In this document: positions 21,438 to 39,711 of the stretch, in pieces
Position numbering within the stretch: the first letter of the stretch is position 1
Layout of the letters: each line of letters opens with the position of its first letter
Sequence record: OR352955.1
DNA from: Escherichia phage AV125
Strand: one strand, 5' to 3'
Length of the DNA: 64,000 nt
The notes under the pieces: generated by a model
What the model was told of the DNA's origin: nothing
Seen by the model: the letters and a program-made list of their open reading frames with translations, nothing else
Databases searched by the model: none
Made by a program: the position numbers and the translations under genes

Positions 21438-21451
21438 GGGGCCGAAGCCCC
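21438..21451 (-). repeat. intergenic UUCG-tetraloop hairpin (GGGGC-UUCG-GCCCC on transcript)
   Basis: GGGGCCGAAGCCCC; same element recurs at 33531 and 39698. Confidence 0.6.
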
Positions 21452-21460
21452 TTGAGTGGT

Positions 21461-22276
21461 TTATTTGTTTAAGTGGTCTTCGACCATTTTAATGAAACCT
21501 TCATTGCTGAAGGCTGTTGCAGCTTTTTCTCGGTAAACAAAAACTCCACGATCTTCATAGAGAAGTGTTTCTTCGTAATTAACTCCAGGGTTAACTACAA
21601 CCATTTTTGTACCCATACTAAGTGCAGGAAATAATTCCCAATTAAAATTGATAACTTGGTTTGAACATCCTACTACTACAACCAAATCTTGCATGGTCAA
21701 AGTATCGAACAAGTGAGCCATATCTGCATACAAAGGTGCAGCCTCACCAAAAAATACAACATTAGGCTTCACCCAGTTATAATCATCTATGTTTATACTA
21801 TTGTAACCAATATCTACCAGTGTTTTGTAATCTCCAGGATGCATACGGTAAACTACTTCAGGAAGATATCCGTGTACGTGAATAACAGAATCTCTGTCTA
21901 CACCTGCTCGCTCTAGCAGATCATCAACGTTTGTTGTCAAGTTTACTATTTGGTTAGGATATTCCTTAAACCACTTTGCTATTTGAATATGTGCAGCATT
22001 AGGTTGTACATCTTTAAGCTCAACACGTCTTTTGTTATAAAATTCGTGTGTTTTGGCATACAAATCCATACCGTTCTCGTCTACACCACCGACCACTGGA
22101 AGATCTGGAGATGTTCTAACACGATAACCTGCTTGGAAAGCTCCAATATCGCAGACCTCTTCTAAATCATATTCTTCCCATAAAGCACGACCACTATCTG
22201 TGTCTGTTCTAAATGTTCGAATCCCACTGTCTGCACTTAAACCTGCACCGCTTACAAAAATCACTCGTCTTGGCAT
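21461..22276 (-). CDS. Sir2-family (sirtuin-like) protein
   Basis: VIFVSGAGLSADSGIRTFR (sirtuin GAGIS-x-GIP-x-FR motif), HVHGYL, VVFFGE, VVVGCSNQV; lacks the Cys4 zinc module. Confidence 0.65.
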   Translation of the reverse strand: MPRRVIFVSGAGLSADSGIRTFRTDTDSGRALWEEYDLEEVCDIGAFQAGYRVRTSPDLPVVGGVDENGMDLYAKTHEFYNKRRVELKDVQPNAAHIQIAKWFKEYPNQIVNLTTNVDDLLERAGVDRDSVIHVHGYLPEVVYRMHPGDYKTLVDIGYNSINIDDYNWVKPNVVFFGEAAPLYADMAHLFDTLTMQDLVVVVGCSNQVINFNWELFPALSMGTKMVVVNPGVNYEETLLYEDRGVFVYREKAATAFSNEGFIKMVEDHLNK

Positions 22277-22746
22277 TCTTCCTCCTCAAATGGATCATAA
22301 GAATTGTACTCGTAAGTATCATCTTCTGAAAATTCTACTTCGAAATAAATATCAAACTCTGCAAACAGACGTAGGATGTTAGACATGCTGTAATAATTAT
22401 CGTAGGCAGATTCAGCTTCATAGTAAACATAAAGCCAATGGTTAGCCTTATCATCTTCCAAATATTTCCCGTCTGCATACGCATAGTCTGCATATGCTTT
22501 ACCTGCATCTTCCACAAGAGAACGATCAAGCAGAGTAGGAAATGGTTTCTCTTTTTCTTTTAGTTTGCTCACTAACCAATGTGCAATATCATTCCATTCT
22601 GCATCCATACCACTAAAGCAACTTGCTTCTTCTCCAAAAGAAGCTTCTCCTAAATCGCCACTAATACGAATAACATTAGATGAATTATAGCCACACGTTT
22701 CACAATCAGAGTAACTATTATGCACATTGACATTTACTTGAAACAT
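22261..22746 (-). CDS. acidic hypothetical protein
   Basis: 161-aa ORF, Asp/Glu/Tyr-rich. Confidence 0.5.
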   Translation of the reverse strand: MFQVNVNVHNSYSDCETCGYNSSNVIRISGDLGEASFGEEASCFSGMDAEWNDIAHWLVSKLKEKEKPFPTLLDRSLVEDAGKAYADYAYADGKYLEDDKANHWLYVYYEAESAYDNYYSMSNILRLFAEFDIYFEVEFSEDDTYEYNSYDPFEEEECQDE

Positions 22747-22766
22747 ATTCCCTCCTATAAAAGAAA

Positions 22767-22787
22767 AGCCCCCTGAAACAGGAGGCT
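22767..22787 (-). repeat. intergenic stem-loop
   Basis: AGCCCCCTG-aaa-CAGGAGGCT, one mismatch. Confidence 0.4.
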
Positions 22788-22804
22788 TTGTTCAGATGTT
22801 GGCA

Positions 22805-23458
22805 CTATACCAGACTTTGTAGGTATTTGTCAAGGGCTTCTTGATCGCCTTGACAAACATAGCAACGGAAGTCTTGAGCCGAAGGTTGTTTATTTTCATC
22901 CCAGTCCCAATAAACATTACCCTTATAACGTGAACCAGGAAACTCAAAAGAGGCTGTATGTGTAATGTATCCTGGGCCACCAGTGAAATCACAGAATGAG
23001 AATTGGGGGTATGCCGCCTTTACTGCCTCAATAAACCAAGCTTTACGATCTAAAGCTTCATTGATGCTATACGCATGTCTCTCCATTTCTTCCCACGTTT
23101 TCCAGACACTTCTCTCATCAGGAGAAAAGACAAGCCATTCTGGAAGGTATAGAGTGTCATAGTAATCATCATATTCGATCTCGGAGGCGCACGAAGCTGA
23201 CTCCTCCAGTTTTGAGTAATCAAAAGCAGAATATACCCACCAACCATCTTCCAGTAACGCTTTGATAGGGACGAAGCCTTTATCAGCATATTGATCGAAT
23301 TGTTTGACACGGTGGCTTGTGCAGTCTTCAAACTCACATTCTAAACGATATGCACCTTTTCGACGAGCCTCAAGACCGTGTGTACTGAAAATAACAACAC
23401 TTCCTTCACCATCATTACGATCTACTTGATAAGCAACCACTGGTTTTGAATTTGACAT
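22805..23458 (-). CDS. hypothetical protein
   Basis: 217-aa ORF. Confidence 0.55.
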   Translation of the reverse strand: MSNSKPVVAYQVDRNDGEGSVVIFSTHGLEARRKGAYRLECEFEDCTSHRVKQFDQYADKGFVPIKALLEDGWWVYSAFDYSKLEESASCASEIEYDDYYDTLYLPEWLVFSPDERSVWKTWEEMERHAYSINEALDRKAWFIEAVKAAYPQFSFCDFTGGPGYITHTASFEFPGSRYKGNVYWDWDENKQPSAQDFRCYVCQGDQEALDKYLQSLV

Positions 23459-24141
23459 TATTTCTCCTTATCTAGAAGATTGTTAGACAAAAACACTGCA
23501 CGAGCAAAACCACGTGCGGTTAGTGATCTAAGTTGTTTTGTTTTTGCACTAGCTCCACCTAAGCTTTTCCAACCCCAGAAGCAGCCTATATGATCTACTG
23601 GTTTCTTCACTGGTTGAACAAAACCATTGCCGTGCCAAATACAAGTTTTCTTTGTATACCCATCACGGGTAGGCATTTTAGGATGAAAGCTTCCTTCCTC
23701 TTCAAACAAATACCCACCATACTCATAAGGATCAAAGTAAAAATCGGGTTTACGCCATAAGGTTGAAAGTTTACCTACTGGGTTCTCAATCATCCAAGGA
23801 ACATTATATTTGTTACCCAAAGCTTCCACTACACGAATATTAGCTAAAGCTTCATCCAATTCCTCTGTGCTGCGTTCGTGTTTGCTACCACTACCTGCTA
23901 ACATAGTGCAAGGTGGAAATCCAAAAATAATATCGGGTTTAGGTATCCCATGATCTTCAGGGTTGAATGTAGAATCTATCCAGGTATTCACATAGGTTAT
24001 GTTTGGGTGCTCCATCCTAACCTCGTATTTACCGTGATCCCCTTCATCAGCGTTTACACAAAAACACTTGTGACCTGCTTCGGCATAACGTAACACCATG
24101 ATCCCAGATCCGTCAAACATAGACAAAACTGTTTTACTCAT
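23458..24141 (-). CDS. compact cytosine-C5 methyltransferase-like protein
   Basis: Start at ATG 24141 (RBS GGAGGGG); LSMFDGSGIM (motif I FxGxG), GFPPCTMLAGSG (motif IV Pro-Cys), MIENPVG (motif VI ENV-like); only about 227 aa so little room for a target-recognition domain. Confidence 0.5.
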   Translation of the reverse strand: MSKTVLSMFDGSGIMVLRYAEAGHKCFCVNADEGDHGKYEVRMEHPNITYVNTWIDSTFNPEDHGIPKPDIIFGFPPCTMLAGSGSKHERSTEELDEALANIRVVEALGNKYNVPWMIENPVGKLSTLWRKPDFYFDPYEYGGYLFEEEGSFHPKMPTRDGYTKKTCIWHGNGFVQPVKKPVDHIGCFWGWKSLGGASAKTKQLRSLTARGFARAVFLSNNLLDKEK

Positions 24142-24547
24142 TACCCCTCCATTCAAGACAAGCCATAACTTTACGCCAATCACTTTCTGTAAGAAAAATC
24201 TCGTTTGCTTTCTTCCACAAATCTAAATCGTGAAGGGTTGGAATACGATATGTTAGTTCACAGAATCTATGCTCTTCTTCTGTAATATAACCAAAATGCA
24301 GAGCCACATCGTGAAACCAACACCAACCATGCATCTCTCGAACAACATGGTCATGCTGAGACATTGTTTTATGCCGTAAACCTAACCAACAAGGAACAGA
24401 TATTTTAGTAGTCTTTAATCTGTGATCAACAGTATTAGAGTATTCAATAATAGCTGTCAGTTTCAATCGTGCTTTTTCTAAATCCTCATGGGTCACTTTG
24501 AAATAACTTTCTGAAAGATATCCACACATATTAATAACCTCCTTCAA
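24134..24547 (-). CDS. hypothetical protein
   Basis: 137-aa ORF, Cys/His/Trp-rich. Confidence 0.5.
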   Translation of the reverse strand: MKEVINMCGYLSESYFKVTHEDLEKARLKLTAIIEYSNTVDHRLKTTKISVPCWLGLRHKTMSQHDHVVREMHGWCWFHDVALHFGYITEEEHRFCELTYRIPTLHDLDLWKKANEIFLTESDWRKVMACLEWRGNE

Positions 24548-25472
24548 AAGGCTTAACTACATGTTGATTAGCTTTAAAACGTTCAACATAGTCATTTTCG
24601 CCCATGTTTTCATATAGCTTAGTAACAACATAAAAGTTTTCCCAAGCATATTCCCTAAACCAACCACTAGTGATGGATGTGCAGACTTTAGATAAAGCCA
24701 TTATAAAACTTTGCTTAGGGGTTGGACCTCCAATCTCTTCACCGAAAGGAATTTGTGAACGTTCCAAAGCCAAAACACACGCTTCTTCATAAACACCTAA
24801 CAGGCGCACATGTTTTGGTTGAGCAAAAAACTTTTCTTTGCTGGTCATAACTTCACTTCCATCTTTCATATAAGATTTATATGCTGGAGCATCCATTAAC
24901 GCGATTGCTTCATGGATAGAATCATGATCATAAACATACGGAACCTCGTCACCTTTAAAGAAGTCTTTACTTTTTACGTTTAAGTTCGGATGAGAGTAAG
25001 TGTATGTTTCTTTCTCACGCAACTCATAAATACTCTTAAGATTTTCTGGGATCTTTGCGCCCAGTGACCGCATGAAATGAATATCTTTCATAGTTTTAAA
25101 GAAATGAGGACTATCCTTTTTAAAACGATGACTCATTTTAAGAAGGTAGAGCACATCTAAAGGAGCAACAACATGTCCAGCGTAAGTTCGACGAACATCA
25201 TCAGAATCTTCACAATAACTAATCAAAGCTTCTGTGCTATCTCCTTGAGAAGCAATATCGTATTCCAAATGTGCACCAGTTATCATTTTGACATGGCCTT
25301 TGTTTCCTTTACGTTCTACAAGTTCAACAAACTCCTCTTGAGAGAACATTTTTGATAATTCTTCCCACTCTTGTTCTGTACACAGGTAATCTAAATCTAC
25401 ACAAGGGCGATACAAGTCTTTTCCCATGTCCATAGCATGAATTTGCAATGCACGGCTACCAATTAACACCAT
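24531..25472 (-). CDS. hypothetical protein, possible Pol-beta-superfamily nucleotidyltransferase
   Basis: 313 aa; N-terminal LIGSRALQIH...CVDLDYL resembles the GS...DxD nucleotidyltransferase signature but spacing is atypical. Confidence 0.5.
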   Translation of the reverse strand: MVLIGSRALQIHAMDMGKDLYRPCVDLDYLCTEQEWEELSKMFSQEEFVELVERKGNKGHVKMITGAHLEYDIASQGDSTEALISYCEDSDDVRRTYAGHVVAPLDVLYLLKMSHRFKKDSPHFFKTMKDIHFMRSLGAKIPENLKSIYELREKETYTYSHPNLNVKSKDFFKGDEVPYVYDHDSIHEAIALMDAPAYKSYMKDGSEVMTSKEKFFAQPKHVRLLGVYEEACVLALERSQIPFGEEIGGPTPKQSFIMALSKVCTSITSGWFREYAWENFYVVTKLYENMGENDYVERFKANQHVVKPFEGGY

Positions 25473-25537
25473 AATATTTCTCCTCTATTGGTTGATAGGT
25501 TAAGTTTATCAAGCTTCCAGATTCCTGTCAATAAAAA

Positions 25538-25553
25538 ACCCGCCGAAGCGGGT
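25538..25553 (-). repeat. intergenic UUCG-tetraloop hairpin
   Basis: ACCCGC-CGAA-GCGGGT. Confidence 0.55.
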
Positions 25554-25562
25554 TATTATTTA

Positions 25563-25835
25563 CTAACACATTGAGGAAGAAGAGATCCAAACACCTCTTG
25601 TGGTTAAACCATTTTCATCCAACTCTACACCATAATCTTCACAAATGAAATCAATATAGTGATCTGCGGCTGGCGTTCCTGTAGGGTAATAAGTTTCTCC
25701 GTTACCGTAGTCACCTATCCAAGCTTGTTCCTGAAACTGTTCACAAAGTTCTTCAATTTCCTTACGAAACTTTCTTTGTGCTTGTTCCATCTCTTTAACT
25801 TTCTTTTTTATCAGCAGTTCGCCTTCAGACTCCAC
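25563..25835 (-). CDS. family C small acidic protein (paralog 1 of 3)
   Basis: 90 aa ending ...RGVWISSSSMC. Confidence 0.55.
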   Translation of the reverse strand: MESEGELLIKKKVKEMEQAQRKFRKEIEELCEQFQEQAWIGDYGNGETYYPTGTPAADHYIDFICEDYGVELDENGLTTRGVWISSSSMC

Positions 25836-25844
25836 AATCTCTCC

Positions 25845-26063
25845 TTAACAGCTACTACTGTGCCAAACGCCTTGAGAATTAACGACGAAACCATCATCAC
25901 CTTCACCATAACAAGAAGAGGATTGCCAATCTTCAAAACAGATTGCGTCATCTTCTAAACTAAGACCAAAACCAGCATCTTCAGCTTCTTTTGTAAGTTC
26001 GTCCACTAAAGCCATAATAGCTTGGGCTTTTTCAGTTAATTCTTCAACATTACGATAACTCAT
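25845..26063 (-). CDS. family C small acidic protein (paralog 2 of 3)
   Basis: Start at ATG 26063 (TAATG overlap with upstream stop); ends ...QGVWHSSSC. Confidence 0.55.
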   Translation of the reverse strand: MSYRNVEELTEKAQAIMALVDELTKEAEDAGFGLSLEDDAICFEDWQSSSCYGEGDDGFVVNSQGVWHSSSC

Positions 26064-26371
26064 TAGTATTTCTCCTCTGGTTGGAAAACGGAACGACAGG
26101 CCCACATAGAAGCTTCTTTCAACTTAGTCTTTGCTATTGAAATTTGGTCAAGGCGGGTGGATATATTGGTAGACTCTTCCAAATCTTCACAATCGTCCAG
26201 TTCAGCCCACAATTCAGACATTAGAGCATCAAAGATTAATCCTAATCGAACTTCAGCATCTTTAATAGCATTCACTTTACCAATTTTGTCATCGGTATGC
26301 GGTTTATAACCTTTGATATCTTCGATTCCCACTTTACCTCCTATTAACAACTTAAAGAAGATGGATGCCAA
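26063..26371 (-). CDS. hypothetical protein
   Basis: 102-aa ORF. Confidence 0.5.
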   Translation of the reverse strand: MASIFFKLLIGGKVGIEDIKGYKPHTDDKIGKVNAIKDAEVRLGLIFDALMSELWAELDDCEDLEESTNISTRLDQISIAKTKLKEASMWACRSVFQPEEKY

Positions 26372-26541
26372 TTTGTTCCAGTGTTCTCATTTTCGTCTTC
26401 TGGATCATAATAACCACCCATCCCATATTCAGGGGAGAAACGGAAACCTTTACCAGTCTCATCTGCTAACTGCTCTGCTTCCGCTAAAGCCTCATAAGCT
26501 GCTTTTACGGCTTCTTCTACTGTTTTAAACTTGGTCGTCAT
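26344..26541 (-). CDS. family C small acidic protein (paralog 3 of 3)
   Basis: 65 aa ending ...TNWHPSSLSC. Confidence 0.5.
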   Translation of the reverse strand: MTTKFKTVEEAVKAAYEALAEAEQLADETGKGFRFSPEYGMGGYYDPEDENENTGTNWHPSSLSC

Positions 26542-26815
26542 AAAATTTCTCCTCTCCTAAAGACATGTTGACATGAAATGCGCGGTATGTAAATTCGTTG
26601 TCCGTTGTGTTAGAATAAAACTCAAATTGAACAACACCGTCTTGAGAAGACAAATACATGCCAATTTGAACTGTTCCTTCTGGTACCAGGTAAGCATACT
26701 CTGGACGTAGTGTTACATTGTAAAAATAAAGTTCCCCAACACCCATTTCATCCCAAGCTTCCCAAGCGGTAACGAAGTTACTTTCAAAACTTGTTACTGA
26801 TCCGAACTCTGCCAT
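26525..26815 (-). CDS. hypothetical protein
   Basis: 96-aa ORF. Confidence 0.5.
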   Translation of the reverse strand: MAEFGSVTSFESNFVTAWEAWDEMGVGELYFYNVTLRPEYAYLVPEGTVQIGMYLSSQDGVVQFEFYSNTTDNEFTYRAFHVNMSLGEEKFYDDQV

Positions 26816-27306
26816 AAAACCTCCTCAATCTTGTAGTTTGACTCCATCTCCAACACATTTCCACGAACGTCTCTCCGAAGAAAGGCATAAGCTTTATTAG
26901 GTATTGTAGACTCATATTTAACCATATCTGGCACAGCAAAAGATACTACTACTCCTGCTGGGCTTCTGTCAAGAGCCTTATTAATATTTCTAAGGATATC
27001 GTTAGCCAAGATTTCTGCCAATTCTCCAAGAACAGTTTCTGTTATATCTTTATATCCCATTAAGTATTTGTTGATATCTTTCATCTCCGTATTGTTCAGA
27101 GTATAGTCCAAAGGATAGAAATTCAAAGCGGAGTCACTTTTATGTGTCCACATGAAATGCACCCGATCCGAGCAGAATCGTAACCCTCTTTGAAGAATAT
27201 CTTCTACAACAGGCAGAATTTCTTTTGTCACATCATTAACCATGTTGTAATCTAAGATTTCTGCCAAGTTTGTTCTTTGTTCACCACGTTTACGTTTAGG
27301 AATCAC
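26794..27306 (-). CDS. hypothetical protein
   Basis: 170-aa ORF. Confidence 0.55.
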   Translation of the reverse strand: MIPKRKRGEQRTNLAEILDYNMVNDVTKEILPVVEDILQRGLRFCSDRVHFMWTHKSDSALNFYPLDYTLNNTEMKDINKYLMGYKDITETVLGELAEILANDILRNINKALDRSPAGVVVSFAVPDMVKYESTIPNKAYAFLRRDVRGNVLEMESNYKIEEVLWQSSDQ

Positions 27307-27901
27307 TTGTTATTGCCCTCATTACCAAAGGTCGTAGAAAATCGTAAATCTCTTGTTTTGTTTTCCCACGAATGTTTAAACAAGGAACATTATTGGCTTT
27401 AGCTATCTTCCAAGCCGTAGCTGTTCCACCTTTTGCATCTCCATGTTTATCAGTATTAGCACAAGCCAACAAGAAACATGATGGAGCAGGATTCTCCAAA
27501 TCTCTACCTAACACTTGATGCACATTACGTTGGTGCAATTTTCTAGCACCCTGCTTAAGCTTTTCATAGGCTGGGTGAACATCTTTGATCCATTGCACAG
27601 AGATAGCATAGTTCATTGTATCTGGTTTTGCAAGAACAATAACATCCCCTGGAATCTGATTACCTTTGAAATTTTCCCAAGGAACATAAATCTCCTTGTT
27701 AGTAGGATTTTCAGACTCTTGGACACCTGTTTCAAAAGCAGAATCACTACCCTCTGCCTTCCCAGACCTTAATTTAAACCCAAGGTTTGAAAGCCATTTC
27801 CCTATGCCTACCATCAAAGCCCACTCTTCTTCGGATATGTCTCTACTTCCAACTCCCGTATAGAACAGTTCTGCCATAATCACCTCAACAAGTAATTTCA
27901 A
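27296..27901 (-). CDS. hypothetical protein, possible Rossmann-like (SLOG/DprA-like) fold
   Basis: 201 aa; YTGVGSR...SGKAEGSDSA pattern is only weakly diagnostic. Confidence 0.5.
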   Translation of the reverse strand: MKLLVEVIMAELFYTGVGSRDISEEEWALMVGIGKWLSNLGFKLRSGKAEGSDSAFETGVQESENPTNKEIYVPWENFKGNQIPGDVIVLAKPDTMNYAISVQWIKDVHPAYEKLKQGARKLHQRNVHQVLGRDLENPAPSCFLLACANTDKHGDAKGGTATAWKIAKANNVPCLNIRGKTKQEIYDFLRPLVMRAITSDS

Positions 27902-29262: not shown

Positions 29263-29272
29263 TCCTTCCTCC

Positions 29273-30054: not shown

Positions 30055-30070
30055 AATCCCTCCTTAAAAT

Positions 30071-30090
30071 ACTCCCTCCGAAAAGGGAGT
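30071..30090 (-). repeat. intergenic stem-loop
   Basis: ACTCCCT-ccgaaa-AGGGAGT. Confidence 0.5.
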
Positions 30091-30099
30091 ATAAGTATA

Positions 30100-30551: not shown

Positions 30552-31061
30552 TTAAACAAAATAAAATGGTTGAGAGAGGCCCAAACGATTCTTTGGGTCG
30601 TATACATACCAAGCGTATGCTGTCTTATCTGTTCCACCTGCAACAAACGAAGGCCGTTCTGAAAGGACTATAAGGTTTGTTGGTGGATTCTTTTGATGGA
30701 ACTCTCGTCGTTTCTTTGACTCCAAGAAGCCCAACCGAAGAAGATAAATACAAACATCTGCCTCTTTTAAGCTCTTTTCCAAGAACTCCATTGCTAACTT
30801 AAATGGAGGATTTGTGATTATAATGTCGGGACGATTTTCCCATTCATGACTAAAATAATCTTTACCTTCTTCAAGTTCGCAATATTCTGAACCTTCAGGA
30901 AAATGGCGATAAATCGCTTCAGCTTCACCTCTGCAAGGTTCTGCAAAAACCCAACCTTCTTCCTTTAGATTTTTGAAATCTATAACACTAAACAAACTAT
31001 TGATTGCTTTTTGCGGTGTCGGATAATAATCGCTCGTTGGGCGATCATAATCTAATGCCAT
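30552..31061 (-). CDS. small DNA N6-adenine methyltransferase-like protein (phage Dam-like)
   Basis: DYYPTP near N-terminus, IIITNPPF (NPPF catalytic motif), 169 aa. Confidence 0.55.
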   Translation of the reverse strand: MALDYDRPTSDYYPTPQKAINSLFSVIDFKNLKEEGWVFAEPCRGEAEAIYRHFPEGSEYCELEEGKDYFSHEWENRPDIIITNPPFKLAMEFLEKSLKEADVCIYLLRLGFLESKKRREFHQKNPPTNLIVLSERPSFVAGGTDKTAYAWYVYDPKNRLGLSQPFYFV

Positions 31062-31479
31062 CTAAAATCTCCTCTTTTGTAATATTATCCAACTCTTTAA
31101 AGGATGAAATCTCGTTTAATAATCCTATTTGATCAGCTTCTAGCGGATAAGTGTTTTTATCTGTTTTTCTAGACAGAATATCTTCAACAAACTTATCAAT
31201 AGCCAAAGAAGAATCATAAAATTTTAAAAGTTGGTAATCCATAGGAGATATTTTGTCATCTCTTAGAAATATTTCTAACATGTTTTCAGGAGTATCGTGG
31301 TTTAGTTTATGTTCACCAAAAATATTAACTTCGTAAACATCTTTGCCAAACCAACGTTTCTTCTTTTCAACAGTATAGGTTTTTGCCACCAGACCATCTA
31401 AACAGTTTCTTGCCCTCTTACATGTTTGACGGTAAGAGTGGATAGCGCCTTCAACAAACTTAGCAGGAACTTGTAACAT
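31045..31479 (-). CDS. hypothetical protein
   Basis: 144-aa ORF. Confidence 0.5.
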   Translation of the reverse strand: MLQVPAKFVEGAIHSYRQTCKRARNCLDGLVAKTYTVEKKKRWFGKDVYEVNIFGEHKLNHDTPENMLEIFLRDDKISPMDYQLLKFYDSSLAIDKFVEDILSRKTDKNTYPLEADQIGLLNEISSFKELDNITKEEILDGIRL

Positions 31480-31503: not shown

Positions 31504-31519
31504 TGCCCCCGAAGGGGCA
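31504..31519 (-). repeat. intergenic UUCG-tetraloop hairpin
   Basis: GCCCC-CGAA-GGGGC. Confidence 0.5.
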
Positions 31520-31524
31520 GTTTG

Positions 31525-32217
31525 TTAAATAGCGGTTCCTTCGAAATCCGCCACATTTACGAGATTAATATTTTCAGATTTAGAAGTCAAGTTGTTTTCT
31601 GCAACAGATTTTTCTTCAGTATCCGCCTCGTTACCTGCCACGTTACGAGGTTCTTCTTCACCGTAGGGATTACCGAATTTCAAAAGATTGATCAATTCTT
31701 CTTTGGAGAAGTTTTCTAAATCATCGTCTGTTAATTCAATAATCTCGTCTTGTTCTTCAATAAATGTTTCACCACCAGAAAAAGCATCTCGCTTTTTAGC
31801 TACTTCCATAGCTTGTTCTGGTGTTGCCCCTGCGTCAAGAGCAGCTAAAGCAAAGTCTGACCCACTTCCTACTGCATAATATTCTTCATCAATCGGATAT
31901 GCACGTGTTGGGTTGTTACCTTCGTGCAAGAAAATACGTCCGTCTGGATGAACAACAAGTGCAATAAACTCTTCATCTTCTTTATCTGGATCAGAGTGAA
32001 TCATCAAACCAGGGACAGCATCACGTGCTGCTTCGCACTGTAGATTTTGTTCAAACCATTGAAAGAAAGAAAGCACGGAGGTCAGACGACCAGCACCACC
32101 TACAAGGTAATCTCCAATTTTTCGGACCTTTTTGAAATTAATAGAATCTACACGTCCACCAAAAGTTACCTTACCATCACTCAAAATCTTATTTTTGGTT
32201 GCAATAATTGTCGTCAC
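31525..32217 (-). CDS. HslV-like (ClpQ) N-terminal-Thr peptidase with acidic C-terminal extension
   Basis: MTTII... start (Thr2 nucleophile position), NFKKVRKI and [21 protein letters not shown] align with E. coli HslV NVKKVRRL and [33 protein letters not shown] matches the HslV GSGG segment. Confidence 0.7.
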   Translation of the reverse strand: [230 protein letters not shown]

Positions 32218-32720
32218 TATTCTTCCTCCTCTGTTAATGTTTTAAGAACCGCTTTCCCGCCATTCACATATTTGCAGATGTATTCTATCGCACGTAGTGT
32301 CTCTTTGTCAACAAAAATTTGATCAGACGTTGCGAGCGGGTTATTAAGAAGATCACTACAATCACGAACAAGCAGTGCTTTCTTATTAAACAAATTACTT
32401 AAGAACAGTAACTTCGCCTCTTCTTCTGTTATGTGCAGAAGACTGGGATCGGAGCCAGCTATTCCTATTATACAATCAAACAAGCTTTCTTTACTATCAG
32501 AAAGTTCTTGAAAATGGTTTAAAAGCCAATCTTCTCCTAGACACCAACATTTAAACATTTCCAGTTTATCTCGGAGGGTCATATTCTCTAAAGTAAGAGC
32601 AATCTCTTTTTCAATATGGTTTACACAAATTTGACGAAATTCGTTAGGTTTTACGAGTCCCGTTTGATAGCACTCATCTATACCGCTTCTTCCGATAGCT
32701 ATTGTTGCTACACCCATCAA
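32217..32720 (-). CDS. hypothetical protein
   Basis: 167-aa ORF. Confidence 0.5.
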   Translation of the reverse strand: MMGVATIAIGRSGIDECYQTGLVKPNEFRQICVNHIEKEIALTLENMTLRDKLEMFKCWCLGEDWLLNHFQELSDSKESLFDCIIGIAGSDPSLLHITEEEAKLLFLSNLFNKKALLVRDCSDLLNNPLATSDQIFVDKETLRAIEYICKYVNGGKAVLKTLTEEEE

Positions 32721-32752
32721 TCCTCCTTATAAATGGCTTCCCTGCCACATTA

Positions 32753-33511
32753 TTAAATAAACACTTCAGTAATCAGTTTAGACAAACGTCCACGTTTATT
32801 ATCGTCCGTTGTCAGTTCAACGTATCCAATAAAATCTACAATTGGTTCACGAACACCTTCTTCATTTTCTGGATATAAAAGTTCCAAAATTTGATGCAGA
32901 CCATTGCTACGTTTTTTAATTGCATATGTCTGGCGAACATCGCCTAATACAATAACATGCGTATTAATACCTGCACGTTCAATAAGAAGTTTAAGTGTTT
33001 CTGTTGACATAAGTTGTGCTTCGTCAATAATGACGATTGTATTATCCAGGGTAGCCCCCAACAAATAGTTAGGAATATTCAATTCGATCTTACCTGATCC
33101 AATATCGTTTTCCAATTTGTTGGCTGTCATGAATTGCTGGAAAATACGTTTTGTAGATTCATAGTGTGCTGCTAGTTTATCTGTTTTATCCCCAGACAAG
33201 AAACCAATCTGGTCATCTCCGACTTCAGTAGGGTTCTTGATAAAAAGTAGTTTACGGAAGTCTCCTGAACGAAGCATCTGCAAAGCTTTCCATAAAGCAA
33301 CAGAGGTTTTACCAGTCCCTGCCGGAGCATTTACAACAGTCAGATCATTCCAGATCATGCTTTGAACAATCTTATTTTGGTCCCCTTCAGGCATAAATTC
33401 ATCTAAACGGTAATCGTCATTACCTACCGCTTTTGCTGCATAACGGCTTTCAATCTTTGCTGAATTAGCCAGTTTCTGCCGTTGTGTTTTAGCTGCGGTT
33501 TTATTTCCCAT
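32753..33511 (-). CDS. phoH: PhoH-like ATPase
   Basis: Walker A NAPAGTGKTSVAL; start moved to second ATG (33511) preceded by RBS AAAGGAG and an intergenic hairpin. Confidence 0.8.
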   Translation of the reverse strand: MGNKTAAKTQRQKLANSAKIESRYAAKAVGNDDYRLDEFMPEGDQNKIVQSMIWNDLTVVNAPAGTGKTSVALWKALQMLRSGDFRKLLFIKNPTEVGDDQIGFLSGDKTDKLAAHYESTKRIFQQFMTANKLENDIGSGKIELNIPNYLLGATLDNTIVIIDEAQLMSTETLKLLIERAGINTHVIVLGDVRQTYAIKKRSNGLHQILELLYPENEEGVREPIVDFIGYVELTTDDNKRGRLSKLITEVFI

Positions 33512-33530
33512 AGTAGCACTCCTTTTAGAA

Positions 33531-33544
33531 GGGGCCGAAGCCCC
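33531..33544 (-). repeat. intergenic UUCG-tetraloop hairpin
   Basis: GGGGCCGAAGCCCC between lysozyme stop and PhoH start. Confidence 0.6.
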
Positions 33545-33548
33545 TTTA

Positions 33549-34049
33549 TTAGTTGTAAGCATCTAAAGTTCCAGAAGTCAGAACTTTAATTACTCGTTCA
33601 GCACGGTTTGGCGTCTGGCTATACCATCGGCTTTTACGCATGTTTTTACCTGCTTGAGTATAATATGCATTGCTGATTAAAGTCAAGCTATTTTGAAACC
33701 CTTCAGCACCTTTTAACCCCAACTGGAAAACCATGTTGATTATTCCCAATTTACGAGTATCACTCACCTTATCATAGATTGGTGATAAGATAGCACTGTT
33801 TTTTATGTCTCTCTTCACTTTTGCAACATCGTCAGCAAAGATTTGACGGGCTTCTTTTTCTGTGATAACTCCATTAGTCTTACGACCAAGAAGATTATCT
33901 AAGATTTGAATAGCCTTTGCTTTATCTTTTATTTTAGTCAGAAGGTGTCCTATGCCGACTGTCCAATAACCAAGATGGTCTTGATAAACAGTAAGCTTCA
34001 GTCCTTCATCGACTCGTAGCATATCAAACTCATCTACTACTTTAGCCAT
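33549..34049 (-). CDS. e: T4-type lysozyme (endolysin, gene e family)
   Basis: FDMLRVDEGLKLTVYQDHLGYWTVGIGHLL and KSRWYSQTPNRAERVI align closely with T4 lysozyme (catalytic Glu/Asp/Thr positions present). Confidence 0.9.
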   Translation of the reverse strand: MAKVVDEFDMLRVDEGLKLTVYQDHLGYWTVGIGHLLTKIKDKAKAIQILDNLLGRKTNGVITEKEARQIFADDVAKVKRDIKNSAILSPIYDKVSDTRKLGIINMVFQLGLKGAEGFQNSLTLISNAYYTQAGKNMRKSRWYSQTPNRAERVIKVLTSGTLDAYN

Positions 34050-34057
34050 TTACTTCC

Positions 34058-34207
34058 TATTCGTCGTCTCCTACTCCGTGATCCAACTCGTTAAACAACA
34101 GATGTTCTGGAGAAGTTTCACGTTTTGGTTTCGTTTTCTTTATGTTGGACTTCAGCTCATTTGCCAAAGCACGAGAAAAGATCTTACGTTTCTGTTTACT
34201 TTTCATA
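34058..34207 (-). CDS. small basic protein (49 aa)
   Basis: RBS GGAG; MKSKQKRKIFSRALANELK...; below track cut-off. Confidence 0.35.
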
Positions 34208-34211
34208 ATTG

Positions 34212-34472
34212 TTACTCCGCAATTTGAGCCATGAGATCACGCAGTTCGGTAAAACCGCCTACGTATGTTACCTCCCCGTTCACTTCAGACAAAATTTGTG
34301 GAAATGTGCGTGGAGGAACTCCGGTAAGATCAACAACTGTTTTAGTCATTGATTCTAAATCGTAGTCTTGGTCAAGACTTAAATATTCAAACTGTTTATT
34401 GCGCATGGTTAATAGTTGTTTTGACATTTCGCAAAATTGACAGTTAGGTTTACCAAAAATTACAAATTCCAT
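34212..34472 (-). CDS. glutaredoxin-like protein (NrdC/NrdH-like)
   Basis: 86 aa, CQFC redox motif near N-terminus, TFPQI...GG fold signature. Confidence 0.75.
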   Translation of the reverse strand: MEFVIFGKPNCQFCEMSKQLLTMRNKQFEYLSLDQDYDLESMTKTVVDLTGVPPRTFPQILSEVNGEVTYVGGFTELRDLMAQIAE

Positions 34473-35314
34473 TACCTCTCCTTATTAAGTAATACTGCTA
34501 AAGACCGTTCAATACCTTTATTTAAATCTGATTTTGTAAGATAGTGACTGGTTACTAGTTGTGACTTCACCGGACGTGCTGCTGGAGCATTATAGGTTGA
34601 AGCTGATACCGCCGATATCTTAACAGGTTCTGGCATCTGTGTCAAGATCTTTTCCGCAAACTCCGCCCAAGAAATAAGATGGCTTCCTGCAAAATGGTAA
34701 GTCTTTACAGATCTTGACCAACCTGTTTTTAATACTTCAAAAATAGCTTCTGCTAAATCTGGGGCATATGTTGGACAAGAGAACTGATCTGCAACGATAG
34801 TAAAATCACGTTGTCCATCATTATAGCGAGACAACATAGTTTTTAGAAAGTTATTTCCAAATTCACTATATACAGACGCTGTTCGAATAATATATGCGTT
34901 CGGGTTAACTCCTCGCACCATTTTTTCACCGAGTTCTTTCGTATACCCATAATTGTTTATCGGGTTAGGTGTAGTATCTTCAAAAATAGGATGAGAATAA
35001 TTAAAAATATAGTCTGTAGAAATATGCACAAAATCAATTTTAAGTTTGCTGCACACTGCCGCAATATTTGCAGGGCCATAGGCATTAACAGCCAAAGCAG
35101 TAGCAAAATCATGTTCTGCTTTATCTACAGCCGTATAAGCAGCGCAATTAATAACACCATCTACATAATCTTCAATAATAGCGTTTCGCACAGCTTCAAA
35201 ATTTGTAATATCTACACGTTCTTTAGGATAAATTAAAGACACATTTGAAGGAGCCACTTTACGTAAAGCTTGTCCCAGTTGTCCATTACCACCCAATACC
35301 AGATATGTTAGCAT
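34472..35314 (-). CDS. rmlD: dTDP-4-dehydrorhamnose reductase
   Basis: MLTYLVLGGNGQLGQAL Rossmann start, length 280 aa, position after rmlC. Confidence 0.8.
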   Translation of the reverse strand: MLTYLVLGGNGQLGQALRKVAPSNVSLIYPKERVDITNFEAVRNAIIEDYVDGVINCAAYTAVDKAEHDFATALAVNAYGPANIAAVCSKLKIDFVHISTDYIFNYSHPIFEDTTPNPINNYGYTKELGEKMVRGVNPNAYIIRTASVYSEFGNNFLKTMLSRYNDGQRDFTIVADQFSCPTYAPDLAEAIFEVLKTGWSRSVKTYHFAGSHLISWAEFAEKILTQMPEPVKISAVSASTYNAPAARPVKSQLVTSHYLTKSDLNKGIERSLAVLLNKER

Positions 35315-35874
35315 ACACCCTCGCTACGTAACTGTTGAAAAGACTTAGCCATTGCATCTTTTGTTGATAAGATAGGTTTAAAATCTTCGTCAAAAATCAT
35401 ATCGAAGCCCCAATCAATCCCTATATCAGGATCATCCCAACGTAAACTTTGTTCGCTGGAAGGGTCGTATGGAGTTGTGCATTTGTATTCGAAGATAGCA
35501 TCCATACTCAACACTATAAAACCATGTGCCAAACCAGGTGGAAGCCAGAACTGTGTATGGTGTCGTGCACGAAGAACAACACCGTCCCAAGCACCGTAAG
35601 TAGGACTATCTTTACGTAGGTCTACAGCGAAATCCAATACTTCCCCACTTACACAACGAACAAGCTTACCTTGCGGATTATTTGTTTGAAAGTGCATTCC
35701 TCGCAAAACACCGAAGTTTGATTTAGACATGTTATCTTGAACGAAAGTTTGTCTACCAATGATATCTTCATATTTTTGTTCATTATATGTTTCTAAAAAG
35801 AAACCACGGTCATCTTTATAAACGTCTGGTTTGATAATTACCGCACCTTCAATTTTTGTTTTTTCTACTTTCAT
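35308..35874 (-). CDS. rmlC: dTDP-4-dehydrorhamnose 3,5-epimerase
   Basis: Start at ATG 35874 (RBS GGAGGG); RGFFLETY, RGMHFQ cupin motifs; about 188 aa. Confidence 0.8.
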   Translation of the reverse strand: MKVEKTKIEGAVIIKPDVYKDDRGFFLETYNEQKYEDIIGRQTFVQDNMSKSNFGVLRGMHFQTNNPQGKLVRCVSGEVLDFAVDLRKDSPTYGAWDGVVLRARHHTQFWLPPGLAHGFIVLSMDAIFEYKCTTPYDPSSEQSLRWDDPDIGIDWGFDMIFDEDFKPILSTKDAMAKSFQQLRSEGVC

Positions 35875-35950
35875 TTTCCCTCCGCTAATTTGAGTAGGTA
35901 TTGCCCGTACTCTGTTTTCTTCAGTGAGTTTCCATGGTAGACCAAAGTCT

Positions 35951-36748
35951 CTAAAGAAATCCACCCTTTTTGAAAGCAATTTCTTCCAGGCACGCAATCT
36001 TCAATCCTTGACAGTTCTCAATAGTCTGCACGAATTGACCAGCTTCCATCAGACTGGCGTGTGTTCCTGTGTCAAGCCAAGTAAATCCTCGTCCGAGAAC
36101 TTCTACTTGTAACTTCCTGTCTTCGAGGTAGCTGCGATTGATATCGGTGATCTCCAGTTCTCCACGCGCGGAAGGGGTTACTTCTAATGCACGTTGAATA
36201 ACAGAGTTATCATAGAAATATAAACCTGTGACAGCATAATCTGATTTAGGATTTTCAGGTTTCTCTTCAATAGAAATAACTTGACGATTACTCCCAAATT
36301 CAACCACACCGAATCGTTCAGGATCTTTCACCAAACACCCGAAGATACAAGCTCCGCCCCAAACATCTACCATCTCACTAGCGTTAATCAGTAGTTTACC
36401 AAAGCTTTGTCCGAAGAATAGGTTGTCACCTAAAATAAGAGCAACAGAGTCTTCTCCGATAAAATCTTTACCGATGATGAAAGCGTCCGCAAGACCTCGT
36501 GGCTCGGATTGGATTGCGTAAGTGAGTTTTATCCCAAACATAGACCCATCTCCAAGAAGATGCTCAAAGTCTTCCTGATCGCCTGGTGTGGTGATGATTA
36601 AGATATCCTTAATGTCAGCCAACATCAATACCGATAAGGGGTAGTAGATCATGGGTTTGTCATACACAGGGAGCAATTGCTTGCTCACACTGCGTGTTAC
36701 CGGATGAAGGCGGGTTCCACTTCCTCCCGCCAAAATAATACCTTTCAT
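35951..36748 (-). CDS. rmlA: glucose-1-phosphate thymidylyltransferase
   Basis: [18 protein letters not shown]...[18 protein letters not shown] signature. Confidence 0.9.
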
Positions 36749-36756
36749 AACCCTCC

Positions 36757-37749
36757 TTAAATCTTCTTACTCCACCATTGAGGGTTGTTTAAGTACCATT
36801 CAATCGTTGAGTAGAGATCTTGTTCAAATGTAGAGTTTGCACTCCAACCCAGTTCAGACTCTATTTTAGAAGGATTGATTTCATAACGCAAGTCATGTCC
36901 TTTACGATCTTCAACAAAAGTTATCAAGTTGGAAGAAGGGTAGGTTCCTGCTTCTGGATGTACAGCATCCATGTAGTCACAAACCATATAGATGATCTCC
37001 ATATTGGTTTTGGGATTACGTGTTCCAACATTATACGTTTGACCTGGTTCTCCACCTGTTGCCACTTGAAGAATAGCTCGCGCATGATCCTCAACAAAAA
37101 GCCAGTCTCGCACCTGATCGCCTTTACCATACACCGGAATCTCTTTATTCGTCAAGATACTTGTGATGATTTTTGGGATCAGCTTTTCTGGATGTTGATA
37201 AGGTCCAAAGTTATTGGAGCAGTTGGTTATCACAACAGGTAAACCGTAGGTACGGTACCAAGCTTTCACAAGATGGTCAGATGCTGCCTTAGACGCACTG
37301 TACGGGCTTGAAGGGGCATAAGCTGTCTCTTCGGTAAAGGGAACGCCAGAGTCTGCCATATCGCCGTACACTTCGTCTGTGGAGACATGTACGAACATCT
37401 TAAGTTTATTTTTTGGGAGGAGCCTTGCAGCTTCCAATAAATTGTATGTACCAATAATATTGGAGTCGATGAAAACTCGTGGATTCTTGATAGAATTATC
37501 CACATGACTCTCTGCCGCTAAGTGAATGATGAAATCGGGATTGCACTCTACTACTAAACTTTTGACCTGGGTTTCGTTTGCCAAATCTGTTATGCTTAGT
37601 TTAACGTGAGTGATATCGCCTACATTCTCAATATCTGCTGCATAGCCCATCTTATCAACGACAAAAACTTCGTTATTGGGATCTTGACAAAGAGAGCGCA
37701 CCACGGCACTCCCAATAAAACCAAGACCACCTGTTACCAGATAGCGCAT
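36757..37749 (-). CDS. rmlB: dTDP-glucose 4,6-dehydratase
   Basis: [17 protein letters not shown] Rossmann, SDR catalytic YxxxK region, 330 aa. Confidence 0.9.
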
Positions 37750-37758
37750 CAGTTCTCC

Positions 37759-38085
37759 TTACCAGACATGTTGAGAAATAATAGTTTCCGTTTTAATGTT
37801 ATATTTTTCAAGTAGCTTTGCATAGGCTTCTTTTGCATTCTCATTCAATTGCTCAAGATCTACAGCTATGCTTCCTTCTCCGCCTTCTAAATCAAGGCCA
37901 TATATGCAATAAGACTCATCCGCATCGTAGAAAGGAGAGATGCGGCTTAAGTCAAGACCTTCTTGTAAGAACCAGTTAAAATCTCCGTCAAATTCTTCTT
38001 CAATTCTAGGATCTTCTCCTACAGCCTCTTCCCACTTATTTAAAGGTGCACCCTGTAACATACGCCATTCGATATCAATACCCAT
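37759..38085 (-). CDS. hypothetical protein
   Basis: 108-aa acidic ORF. Confidence 0.5.
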   Translation of the reverse strand: MGIDIEWRMLQGAPLNKWEEAVGEDPRIEEEFDGDFNWFLQEGLDLSRISPFYDADESYCIYGLDLEGGEGSIAVDLEQLNENAKEAYAKLLEKYNIKTETIISQHVW

Positions 38086-38239
38086 TTTTCATCTCCTCCT
38101 CTTCTTGAGCAGCTTTAATAATTGCTTCATAAATATCGTAAGCAATGCCTCCACAACATCTAGCTTCGAAAGCTATTGCTTCTGCAATGTGATCTGTTAA
38201 TTCTCGTGGAATGCGAACATACTCTTTTTCACTCTCCAT
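38081..38239 (-). CDS. small hypothetical protein (52 aa)
   Basis: MESEKEYVRIPRE...; overlaps neighbours by a few nt; below track cut-off. Confidence 0.3.
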
Positions 38240-38381
38240 CTTCTACCTCCAACCCTTCTTTTTCAAAGACTACTACTCGTCCCTCACCATGACAATTCAG
38301 GCAAGGAAATGTTACCATAATTTCCACTTCCATCTGTCCCGTCCCACCGCACACAGGACAAAAAATAAGTTTTTCAGCCAC
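38229..38381 (-). CDS. small zinc-ribbon protein (50 aa, GTG start)
   Basis: RBS AGGAGGAATA then GTG; CPVCGG ... CLNCHG. Confidence 0.35.
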   Translation of the reverse strand: MAEKLIFCPVCGGTGQMEVEIMVTFPCLNCHGEGRVVVFEKEGLEVEDGE

Positions 38382-38590
38382 TATTCCTCCTTAATTATTT
38401 CAAATTTGGCAACACCATTTACAATAATATGACCACAAGACATAACTCCTAGCCAAGGATCGCCGTTTTTCTTCAGGCGTTTACCGAATACATCACAAAA
38501 ACCATTCTTCATTTCAGAGGCTTCATAAGAAACCCCTTTATCAAAAACGTCTTTGAATGTGTCGATTATACCAACACATTTCAAAATCAT
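38381..38590 (-). CDS. hypothetical protein
   Basis: 69-aa ORF. Confidence 0.45.
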   Translation of the reverse strand: MILKCVGIIDTFKDVFDKGVSYEASEMKNGFCDVFGKRLKKNGDPWLGVMSCGHIIVNGVAKFEIIKEE

Positions 38591-39675
38591 TCGAAGTCAA
38601 GCTCCTCATCATCAGAGAGATCTTTGTTAGCTGAATTCAATTTGTAGTTAGTTAACTGAATCTCTTGGGCTGCTGACTGAATCAAATCAGGATTCAACCA
38701 TTTTTCCATCCAAGCTAAAGGGCTATGTTTAGGTGCTTTAAACTTGGCTTTCATTTTCAATCGACGATAAATAGGAGCAGCATTGAAATAAACCCACTGT
38801 TTAGACAATTCGGCGTTAAGACCTACAATAAAACGACCTTCACTAAACAGGTAGTCACACCACTGTTCCTCTTGTTCAACAACAGTGTCAAGAATCAAAG
38901 TCAACTCTTCAATGTTGTCTTCGTAAATTTTACGCCAAATTGGGTCATGCATCAATGCATCAATTACAGCATAATCCATCTTAACATGCAAGATTTCATC
39001 TAGCATAATTTTCTGGATCAGTTTACAAGCTCCAACAAACAGTTGTTGTTCTGCCATAGCAAAAGTAGCAGAGAAGGAGGATATAAACTGAATACCTTCT
39101 AACCCAATCAGGGCTACCATCCCTTTAAGAATCAGCAGTCGAAGTTCATCGTTAGCTTCAATCAATCCTAGAGCATACTTATGACCAGCTTCTTCCAACT
39201 GACCCATGATATCAGCAATGATACCCATACGATTGAAAATTTTATCATTAATCATAATCTGATTGATGACTTCGATGGGATCTGGAGTACATTGACGGAT
39301 TATTTCAGAATACGTTAACGCATGGAGAACTTCCATTTCACTCTGCTTCATCATCATAGCACAGGCTTCATTGTTACTCAAGAATGGAGAGAACAAAGTG
39401 ATGATTGATTTTGCAAGAGAATCATTTTCCCATTGGAACGATAAGTTTTTAATCATAACATCATAGTTGTTTTTAGAACAAGCTACGAAATCTTTACGTG
39501 TCTGATCCAAGTTAACTTCGTTTTCATCCCAATCTTGTGCTTTTTGAAGTTTGTAGAGTTTGTGCATTTCTGGATAAGTCACGTTAACAGAATCAAAGAT
39601 CCCTAATTGCTCCCCCAAAAATACTGGATATTTCCCTGTCTTGTAAACTTCGTTGTGTAAATTAATTGCTGCCAT
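38587..39675 (-). CDS. nrdB: ribonucleotide reductase class Ia small subunit
   Basis: 362 aa, ferritin-like helices with conserved Glu/His iron ligands, adjacent to nrdA. Confidence 0.85.
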   Translation of the reverse strand: MAAINLHNEVYKTGKYPVFLGEQLGIFDSVNVTYPEMHKLYKLQKAQDWDENEVNLDQTRKDFVACSKNNYDVMIKNLSFQWENDSLAKSIITLFSPFLSNNEACAMMMKQSEMEVLHALTYSEIIRQCTPDPIEVINQIMINDKIFNRMGIIADIMGQLEEAGHKYALGLIEANDELRLLILKGMVALIGLEGIQFISSFSATFAMAEQQLFVGACKLIQKIMLDEILHVKMDYAVIDALMHDPIWRKIYEDNIEELTLILDTVVEQEEQWCDYLFSEGRFIVGLNAELSKQWVYFNAAPIYRRLKMKAKFKAPKHSPLAWMEKWLNPDLIQSAAQEIQLTNYKLNSANKDLSDDEELDFE

Positions 39676-39697
39676 TTAAAATTCTCCTCAATAAAAG

Positions 39698-39711
39698 GGG
39701 GCCGAAGCCCC
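39698..39711 (-). repeat. intergenic UUCG-tetraloop hairpin
   Basis: GGGGCCGAAGCCCC upstream of nrdB start. Confidence 0.6.

Follow-up and report, generated by a model that had tools for sequence, protein, structure and literature searches.

What do the short UUCG-capped hairpins between the genes of Escherichia phage AV125 do? The stretch analysed, henceforth referred to as the window, comprises 64,000 nucleotides of this phage (sequence record OR352955.1). A previous inspection of its letters, referred to below as the sequence-only reading, had listed five such hairpins between minus-strand genes and had taken them for RNA processing or stability elements rather than terminators. The results presented here point instead to intrinsic (Rho-independent) terminators or attenuators for host RNA polymerase at cistron boundaries, which is probably what most of the hairpins are. 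The hairpin between the lysozyme and PhoH genes differs from the others and is treated separately.

Census and placement of the hairpins

The motif GGGGCCGAAGCCCC occurs exactly at 21438, 33531 and 39698, where the sequence-only reading had placed three identical copies, with 0 expected in 100 shuffles. On the minus strand each copy reads (A)AGGGGC-UUCG-GCCCC(UU). The variants that had been listed at 25538 and 31504 are also present (J2 and J4 in Table 1). That list had missed two sites, 20796-20817 on the plus strand (J0) and 30069-30092 on the minus strand (J3). The resulting seven sense-strand UUCG hairpins, counted at a stringency of at least 5 bp and at least four G:C pairs, far exceed the number in 300 dinucleotide shuffles of the window (0.057 on average and never more than 2), which rules out a chance origin. 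At the same stringency no other tetraloop sequence was found more than once, except the complementary CGAA.

All seven hairpins lie 2-10 nt 3' of a stop codon on the coding strand, and the UUCG orientation follows the strand of the flanking genes at each of them. The distance to the AGGAG-type Shine-Dalgarno (SD) sequence of the next gene is 4-12 nt, except at 25537, where a promoter lies in between; the earlier description of the listed sites as short gaps just ahead of a ribosome-binding site was thus borne out. The surrounding gene block, for which gene models were taken from the annotations of relatives (ESCO13, ASO2A, phiWec190, alia and others), is densely packed or overlapping, and the hairpins fill its sole gaps of 43-48 nt.

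The hairpins have stems of 5-10 bp with 4-5 G:C pairs, a 4-nt loop at all seven sites and predicted free energies of -10.6 to -13.3 kcal/mol, and all of them form in both the minimum free energy and the centroid folds of the intergenic RNAs. The loop is UUCG, of the UNCG class, throughout. It is closed by a C-G pair at J0, J1, J2, J4, J5 and J6 and by U.G at J3, a non-canonical member. Fold z-scores of the short intergenic RNAs ranged from -0.02 to -3.5 and were uninformative, as shuffled G/C-containing segments refold nearly as well.

U-rich tails and terminator prediction

The tail of each hairpin was defined as the 8 nt after the last G:C pair on the sense strand. Pooled over the seven sites, 38 of the 56 tail positions are U (68%), compared to a background of 29.6% on the sense strand of the gene block (P = 4e-9). 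The tails of J0, J1, J2, J4 and J6 contain 5-7 U per 8 nt, and this U-richness is kept in orthologs; no such tract follows J5 (3/8 U) or J3 (UAUUUUAA alone). A terminator scan flagged 21453, 25554, 31519 and 39711 on the minus strand, corresponding to four of the five hairpins listed previously.

A discriminant of the d'Aubenton-Carafa type was also computed in approximate form, with modern energy parameters. It is positive at J1, J2, J4 and J6, in the same range as the window's non-UUCG terminators (21118, 22765, 45694, 46484, 62022 and 2103). It is also positive at J0 when the stem is trimmed by hand to its G:C core (the script trimmed this stem wrongly and gave -3.2).

Orthologs of six of the seven hairpins (J0, J1, J2, J3, J4 and J6) are annotated as "rho-independent terminator" by TransTermHP and WebGeSTer in vB_EcoM_ASO2A (MZ726793.1), a genome of the same genus with 55 predicted terminators (PMC10612097). 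The hairpin sequences at these features were checked and are identical at J0-J4, while the J6 loop is UUCA. The J5 ortholog is unannotated in that record because PhoH is annotated there from an upstream ATG, so that its coding sequence covers the hairpin.

A further line of evidence comes from other phages. The exact 18-mer AAGGGGCTTCGGCCCCTT was found in at least 120 unrelated IMG/VR viral contigs. Among at least 123 occurrences in UUCG orientation, T occupies each of the next four positions in 71-86%, and at least 5 of the next 8 positions are T in 71%; J1 is typical of the population listed. Outside the motif, the three identical copies in the window have unrelated flanks with no extended similarity. 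Because the 18-mer recurs in so many unrelated contigs, mostly with a T-tract after it, the three identical copies are best explained as apparent convergence on a simple optimum consisting of a G4C stem, a UUCG loop and flanking A2/U2. Taken with the scan, the tails and the MZ726793.1 annotations, this T-tract contradicts the previous argument that the hairpins lack U-runs and hence do not terminate. The premise was mostly wrong, as 33531 alone is truly U-poor among the sites listed, and the conclusion fails at most of them.

Proposed mode of action

The proposed element is a short G:C stem with a C(UUCG)G cap and a short U-rich tract leading straight into the Shine-Dalgarno sequence of the next gene. 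The hairpin would fold in the RNA exit channel while a weak rU:dA hybrid occupies the active site, and a fraction of polymerases would release. Termination is expected to be partial because only J2 has a promoter of its own; the other downstream genes (nrdB after nrdA, PhoH, and the genes after Sir2 and HslV) would have to be reached by read-through. With partial termination, expression would be graded along the operon. Terminator hairpins left at the 3' end of an RNA impede 3' exonucleases, and those of the window may in this way also shield the upstream message from 3'-to-5' degradation. The UUCG loop would not serve as a recognition sequence in this scheme; it would be one of several interchangeable routes to a compact, fast-folding and stable hairpin.

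Several observations weigh against this interpretation. Runs of consecutive U reach only 3-6 nt in the short, interrupted tracts, an effect attributed to the proximity of the Shine-Dalgarno sequence (within 4-12 nt). No obvious promoter lies behind six of the seven sites (a clear one was found behind J2 only and none at J1, J4, J5 and J6), and a strong terminator would be harmful at such positions, for example between nrdA and nrdB. The discriminant is negative at J5, with 3 U in 8, and at J3, with a 4-U run and U.G loop closure. The J5 copy of the 18-mer has one T in the 8 nt after it, below the minimum among the matches listed, and the J5 tail is U-rich in none of eight lineages. The GenBank terminator annotations are software predictions and not experiments, and a literature search on Phapecoctavirus and phi92-like phages returned no transcript 3' ends, transcript maps or in vitro termination data.

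Table 1 Hairpins, terminators and hairpin-associated promoters of the window. Positions refer to the window; sequences are given 5' to 3' on the sense strand; tails are the 8 nt after the last G:C pair.
Feature	Position	Strand	Sequence	Tail	Context	Terminator feature in MZ726793.1	Predicted role
J0	20796..20817	+	AGAACCCGC-UUCG-GCGGGUUUU then UUCAUAUC	UUUUUUCA	between + genes 20472..20753 and 20845..21075	23123-23151	terminator-like
J1	21436..21453	-	AAGGGGC-UUCG-GCCCCUU then UCUUAUUAGGAG	UUUCUUAU	between Sir2 (21461..22276) and 90-aa gene (21145..21417)	23751-23778	putative leaky terminator
J2	25503..25554 (hairpin 25537-25554)	-	AACCCGC-UUCG-GCGGGUU then UUUUUUAU	UUUUUUAU		27837-27864	putative canonical terminator + promoter module
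J3	30069..30092	-	AUACUCCCU(U)-UUCG-(G)AGGGAGUAU then UUUAAGGAGG	UAUUUUAA	U-tract 4 nt	32371-32400	putative marginal terminator
J4	31504..31519	-	UGCCCC-UUCG-GGGGCA then UUUCUUAAAC	AUUUCUUA	between HslV-like peptidase (31525..32217) and 144-aa gene (31045..31479)	33804-33829	putative leaky terminator
J5	33529..33546	-	AAGGGGC-UUCG-GCCCCUU then CUAAAAGGAG	UUCUAAAA	between lysozyme (33549..34049) and PhoH; no U-tract		putative weak attenuator and/or mRNA stability element
J6	39694..39714 (core 39698-39711)	-	AAAGGGGC-UUCG-GCCCCCUUU then UAUUGAGGAG	CUUUUAUU	between HNH gene (39719..40375) and nrdB (38587..39675)	42346-42371	putative leaky terminator
Non-UUCG terminator	21118..21141	both	AAAGGCACCC-ACUU/AAGU-GGGUGCCUUU		perfect 10-bp stem, T-tracts either side; convergence of + block (ends 21075) and - block (starts 21145)	both strands annotated	putative bidirectional terminator
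Non-UUCG terminator	22765..22789	-	AAAGCCUCCUG-UUU-CAGGGGGCUUU then UCUUUUAUAGGAGG		same gene block	25066-25098	putative terminator
GNRA hairpin	703-718	+	GGGGCG-GCAA-CGCCCC	ACAUCAGAAAGG	intercistronic, after stop codon; no U-tract
GNRA hairpin	984-1001	+	GGGGCG-GUAA-CGCCCC	AUUAAACGCAAU	intercistronic, after stop codon; no U-tract
Promoter-hairpin pair	22833-22765	-	TTGACA-18-TATAGT
Promoter-hairpin pair	30122-30069	-	AAGACA-17-TATACT with TG
Promoter-hairpin pair	48872-48820	-	TTGACT-17-TATTAT with TG
Promoter-hairpin pair	320-379	+	TTGACA-16/17-TAATAT (320-348); GGGCGGCA-AUGG-UGCCGCC (~358-377)		strong sigma-70-like promoter, hairpin, then Shine-Dalgarno

Conservation and loop exchange among relatives

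The junctions were compared in ESCO13, ASO2A, phiWec190 (~77% DNA identity), the Justusliebigviruses alia and muut, Klebsiella phage KP2025 and six IMG/VR contigs. Hairpins are kept at fixed gene boundaries across eight lineages with loops that vary among UUCG, UACG, GAAA, GCAA and GUAA, and U-rich tails are retained at the orthologs of J0, J1, J2, J4 and J6. J0 is conserved in phiWec190, alia and muut. The J1 position after Sir2 carries UUCG, UACG in phiWec190, or GAAA in alia, muut and KP2025, and the J6 position after nrdA carries UUCG, UUCA, GAAA or a pentaloop; the tail is U-rich in all cases at both. The J4 loop is UUCG in three genera, with AACCCCC-UCAA-GGGGGUU in muut and AAAAUGCCC-UUCG-GGGCAUUUU in KP2025. 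The J3 hairpin is confined to Phapecoctavirus, and other genera have a promoter-like TTGACT-17-CATACT and an extra invertase gene at this position.

Tetraloops of unusual stability fall into two classes, UNCG and GNRA (PMC4371310). Because the two interchange at fixed positions, the comparison shows that what is conserved is apparently a compact, very stable hairpin and not the UUCG sequence itself. The evidence for concerted homogenisation of loops within genomes was weak, as KP2025 mixes GAAA/GUAA and UUCG copies and carries the same stem with both kinds of loop.

MG065650.1, a 99%-identical record, was assembled into a complete genome, in which all G:C-rich tetraloop hairpins were listed. 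The sense strand of the local genes has 52 hairpins, including 10 UUCG and 4 GNRA, compared to 55 on the antisense strand, including 1 UNCG and 0 GNRA (Fisher P = 1.5e-4). Of the 25 noncoding hairpins on the sense strand, 12 are capped by UNCG or GNRA loops (8 UUCG, 4 GNRA) versus 4.7% expected (P = 3e-10). A palindromic stem allows a hairpin on either DNA strand, and the special loop is found on the mRNA-sense strand only. Since the special loops are sense-specific although the stems are palindromic, the comparison shows selection at the RNA level, in agreement with the previous attribution of the hairpins to the minus-strand transcript (UUCG, 10 sense versus 1 antisense).

The spacing of the hairpins, 4-12 nt from the Shine-Dalgarno sequence and within a conserved gap of 39-41 nt at J5, could also suit translational control, in which the hairpin and its U/C-rich tail would tune ribosome access through tail:SD pairing, as an insulator or as a standby site. 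The tail does pair weakly with the following AGGAG in the predicted folds of J1, J4 and J6. These helices are however short and G.U-rich, as expected for any U-tract beside a purine-rich Shine-Dalgarno sequence, and have no covariation support. Translational control is considered very unlikely; it accounts neither for the bias towards extra-stable loops nor for J2, where the Shine-Dalgarno sequence is ~60 nt away.

The lysozyme-PhoH junction

The GGGGC/GCCCC stem of J5 is invariant in eight lineages, in which it is capped by UUCG, GCAA, GAAA or GUAA and lies 4-6 nt from the Shine-Dalgarno sequence; the gap from the lysozyme stop to the PhoH start is 39-41 nt in all of them. ESCO13 and ASO2A annotate PhoH from an ATG at 33562, overlapping the lysozyme stop and running through the hairpin. 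An ATG preceded by a Shine-Dalgarno sequence (AAAGGAG-N7-ATG) is found at 33511, and a shorter PhoH starting after the hairpin is annotated in phiWec190 (251 aa) and alia (250 aa), and also in muut and KP2025. On this basis the true PhoH start is probably 33511, which makes the J5 hairpin intergenic.

J5 is probably at most a very weak terminator, and it is here that a role in mRNA stability or processing has to be weighed. Under that explanation, an endonuclease such as RNase E would cut the transcripts in the AU-rich sequence beside the hairpin, which would then shield the upstream cistron against 3' exonucleases or block 5'-end-dependent decay downstream, giving cistron-specific half-lives. 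The invariant stem with an extra-stable loop and never a U-tract in eight lineages is consistent with this, as are the outlying position of J5 among at least 123 copies of the same 18-mer, the negative discriminant of J3, the two GNRA hairpins with no U-tails at 703-718 and 984-1001, and the lack of own promoters for most downstream genes. PMC8948821 cites T4 CUUCGG hairpins that affect mRNA stability, and PMC11696848 reports terminator hairpins as enhancing the stability of upstream mRNA.

As the sole function of all sites, however, non-terminating punctuation of this kind is unlikely. A pure stability element has no need of the U-rich tails that are conserved at five of the seven hairpins, three independent programs call terminators, and a T-tract usually comes after the generic 18-mer. 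The sequence-only reading therefore does not hold as the exclusive account of most sites, given their U-tails and the predictor calls; it remains plausible for J5, less so for J3, or as a secondary role. Stabilisation and termination are not mutually exclusive, and the two explanations compete mainly at J5 and J3. For J5 by itself, a non-terminating stabilising or processing role is a serious candidate, with the balance close to even; the case is less clear for J3.

The hairpins at 703-718 and 984-1001 (Table 1) belong to the same U-tract-less class as J5. A tentative extension, for which we would claim little likelihood, is that J5, perhaps J3, and these two hairpins form a class of non-terminating punctuation elements setting segmental mRNA stability or processing, and that replacements of all four loop nucleotides might stem from short-patch conversion among the hairpins of one genome.

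Hairpins adjacent to promoters

Intrinsic termination is the explanation favoured for the remaining sites, and J2 has the sequence of a canonical terminator. A sigma-70-like promoter with an extended -10 element (TTGACA-17-TAAACT, 25531..25503) directly follows and overlaps this hairpin. The hairpin (AACCCGCUUCGGCGGGUUUUUUAUUG), tail and promoter are conserved in six lineages, even where the upstream protein is 34-45% identical, and the orthologous hairpins are always followed by TTGACA-N17-TAnACT, usually with TGn. By its sequence, J2 is a predicted terminator-promoter module, the classic end and start of a transcription unit.

The opposite order was also observed. A -10-like TATACT (30099..30094) lies immediately upstream of J3, and another -10-like element lies just upstream of 22765. 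Sigma-70-like promoters ending 1-15 nt upstream of terminator-like hairpins were identified in three minus-strand arrangements (22833-22765, 30122-30069 and 48872-48820; Table 1). Transcripts from these promoters would start at or just before the hairpin, and the arrangement could represent a 5' stabilising stem-loop, an overlapping terminator and promoter, or a chance match.

At 320-379 on the plus strand, a strong promoter is followed by a hairpin with an AUGG loop and then a Shine-Dalgarno sequence. Six AUGG-loop hairpins are present in the plus-strand early region of a 99%-identical genome (B15 7369, 8897, 10644, 11930, 15286 and 15559). They look like a repeated cassette of promoter and 5' stem-loop that resembles the composite terminator/promoter cassettes known as PeSLs in T4-like phages, and the WebGeSTer terminator calls on some of them in ASO2A are probably wrong.

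The nrdA-nrdB junction and repeated hairpin sequences

The minus-strand gene at 39719-40375, between nrdA and nrdB, encodes a 218-aa HNH endonuclease (PHROG 953, E = 1e-56). In 11 relatives the same position is occupied by a gene of ~112 aa, a homolog of ESCO13 gp094. The HNH gene looks like a homing-endonuclease insertion or replacement, and is reminiscent of mobE between nrdA and nrdB in T4. J6 lies directly 3' of nrdA in most relatives, ASO2A among them, and 3' of the HNH gene in the window. The end of homology with most relatives coincides with the J6 hairpin; the other hairpin sites are syntenic.

The three GGGGC-UUCG-GCCCC copies (AAGGGGCTTCGGCCCC) are direct repeats 6-12 kb apart, and J0 and J2 (CCCGC-UUCG-GCGGG) share a 22-nt identity, AACCCGCTTCGGCGGGTTTTTT, in inverted orientation at a distance of 4.7 kb. 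Short-homology recombination between the copies of either set could cause inversions or deletions.

The repeats, together with the homology breakpoint at J6 beside the inserted HNH gene and the invariant J2 terminator-promoter module flanked by a very divergent upstream gene, would be in keeping with a DNA-level role, in which the hairpins act as homology patches for modular recombination and spread as mobile PeSL-like cassettes. PeSLs are composite terminator/promoter motifs that mediate shuffling (PMC4122927). Against such a role, the UUCG orientation is strictly sense-specific, an RNA-level signature, and the loops change across genera while the positions are fixed. The presence of the 18-mer in at least 120 unrelated contigs argues for convergence and not mobility, and no extended similarity is seen in the flanks of the three copies. 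Recombination would be a by-product at most, and a primary function at the DNA level is regarded as highly improbable.

Comparison with known systems

Intrinsic terminators with short U-tracts, as proposed here, have counterparts of several kinds. The closest is ASO2A, with the same hairpins as software predictions and J5 unannotated. The element type is a textbook one and the same sites are already annotated in this sister genome, and the exchange of loops is a tidy illustration rather than a surprise; it shows in a natural setting, and cleanly, that UNCG and GNRA tetraloops can replace one another at fixed, presumably terminator, positions. The practical use lies in annotation, as the sites place transcription-unit punctuation in Phapecoctavirus, a genus of therapeutic phages, and correct an overlapping PhoH start call.

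Many C(UUCG)G hairpins, an extra-stable type, occur in T4 intergenic regions (Tuerk et al. 1988, as summarised in PMC4371310 and PMC8948821), and the earlier remark that T4 is rich in stable UUCG hairpins is to that extent correct as background. The hairpins of the window share with those of T4 the C-G-closed extra-stable tetraloop, the intergenic location, sense specificity and an association with termination and mRNA stability. They differ in belonging to a Stephanstirmvirinae genome of ~39% GC, and no sequence homology extends beyond the hairpin.

Four entries (t003, t041, t049 and t052) in the terminator table published for rV5, a large coliphage related to the window, have TTCG or TCCG loops (PMC3606486, Table S4). 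The G:C stem, UUCG/UNCG loop and U-tract are common to the window and to rV5 and E. coli-type terminators, while the U-tracts of the window are shorter and cut by the next Shine-Dalgarno sequence, so that efficiency is probably lower; rV5 belongs to a different subfamily. The PeSLs of T4-like phages (PMC2839356, PMC4122927) may be compared with J2, with its stem-loop and sigma-70-like promoter beside divergent genes, and with the homology breakpoint at J6. The promoter half is however present at only one of the seven sites, and the likeness seen is one of arrangement. Finally, J5 is similar to mRNA stabilisers such as REP-type 3' barriers and the T4 gene 32 leader hairpin (general background and PMC8948821) in being a stable intercistronic hairpin with no U-tract. 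It differs in being a single short tetraloop hairpin that is not REP-like, and is a candidate stabiliser.

Genome identity and additional features

A 19-kb query spanning the hairpins matched Phapecoctavirus genomes (phAPEC8_ev052, ESCO13, Schickermooser and others) with 98-99% identity over 98% of its length. On these matches, the window is assigned to Phapecoctavirus (phAPEC8/ESCO13-like) of the Stephanstirmvirinae, phages of ~150 kb and ~39% GC. The mention of T4 in the sequence-only reading had implied a T4 attribution, which was wrong; a T4 or T4-like origin is ruled out, as T4-like phages match merely ~100-280 bp, in the Acb2 gene. Close relatives (98-99%) have been deposited as "Campylobacter phage B15" (flagged UNVERIFIED), "Acinetobacter phage vB_AbaM_ABPW7" and "Klebsiella phage ZCKP1", and a 78%-identical relative as "Pseudomonas phage PsgM04F". 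At least some of these host names seem questionable for a genus that infects E. coli.

At the gathering score, Rfam returned no family in the whole window other than tRNAs (59.9-61.9 kb), and none at the hairpins. The plus-strand tRNA cluster (59895-61906) contains 10-11 genes (Met, Arg, Ser, Asn, Thr, Gly, Gln, Pro, Ile and Met), the eleventh, at 60593-60677, being found by Rfam with no ARAGORN call.

The 102-aa open reading frame at 26063-26371 on the minus strand encodes an Acb2/Tad1-family protein (T4 vs.4 homolog; PF24729, E = 2e-19), an anti-CBASS nucleotide sponge. A single GenBank label as RegB-like RNA endonuclease, which would bear on GGAG cleavage, was rejected on the basis of the same match. 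Over ~60-280 bp this gene matches the vs.4 region of many T4-like phages with 76-94% DNA identity, which suggests that Stephanstirmvirinae and Tevenvirinae-like phages have recently exchanged DNA horizontally.

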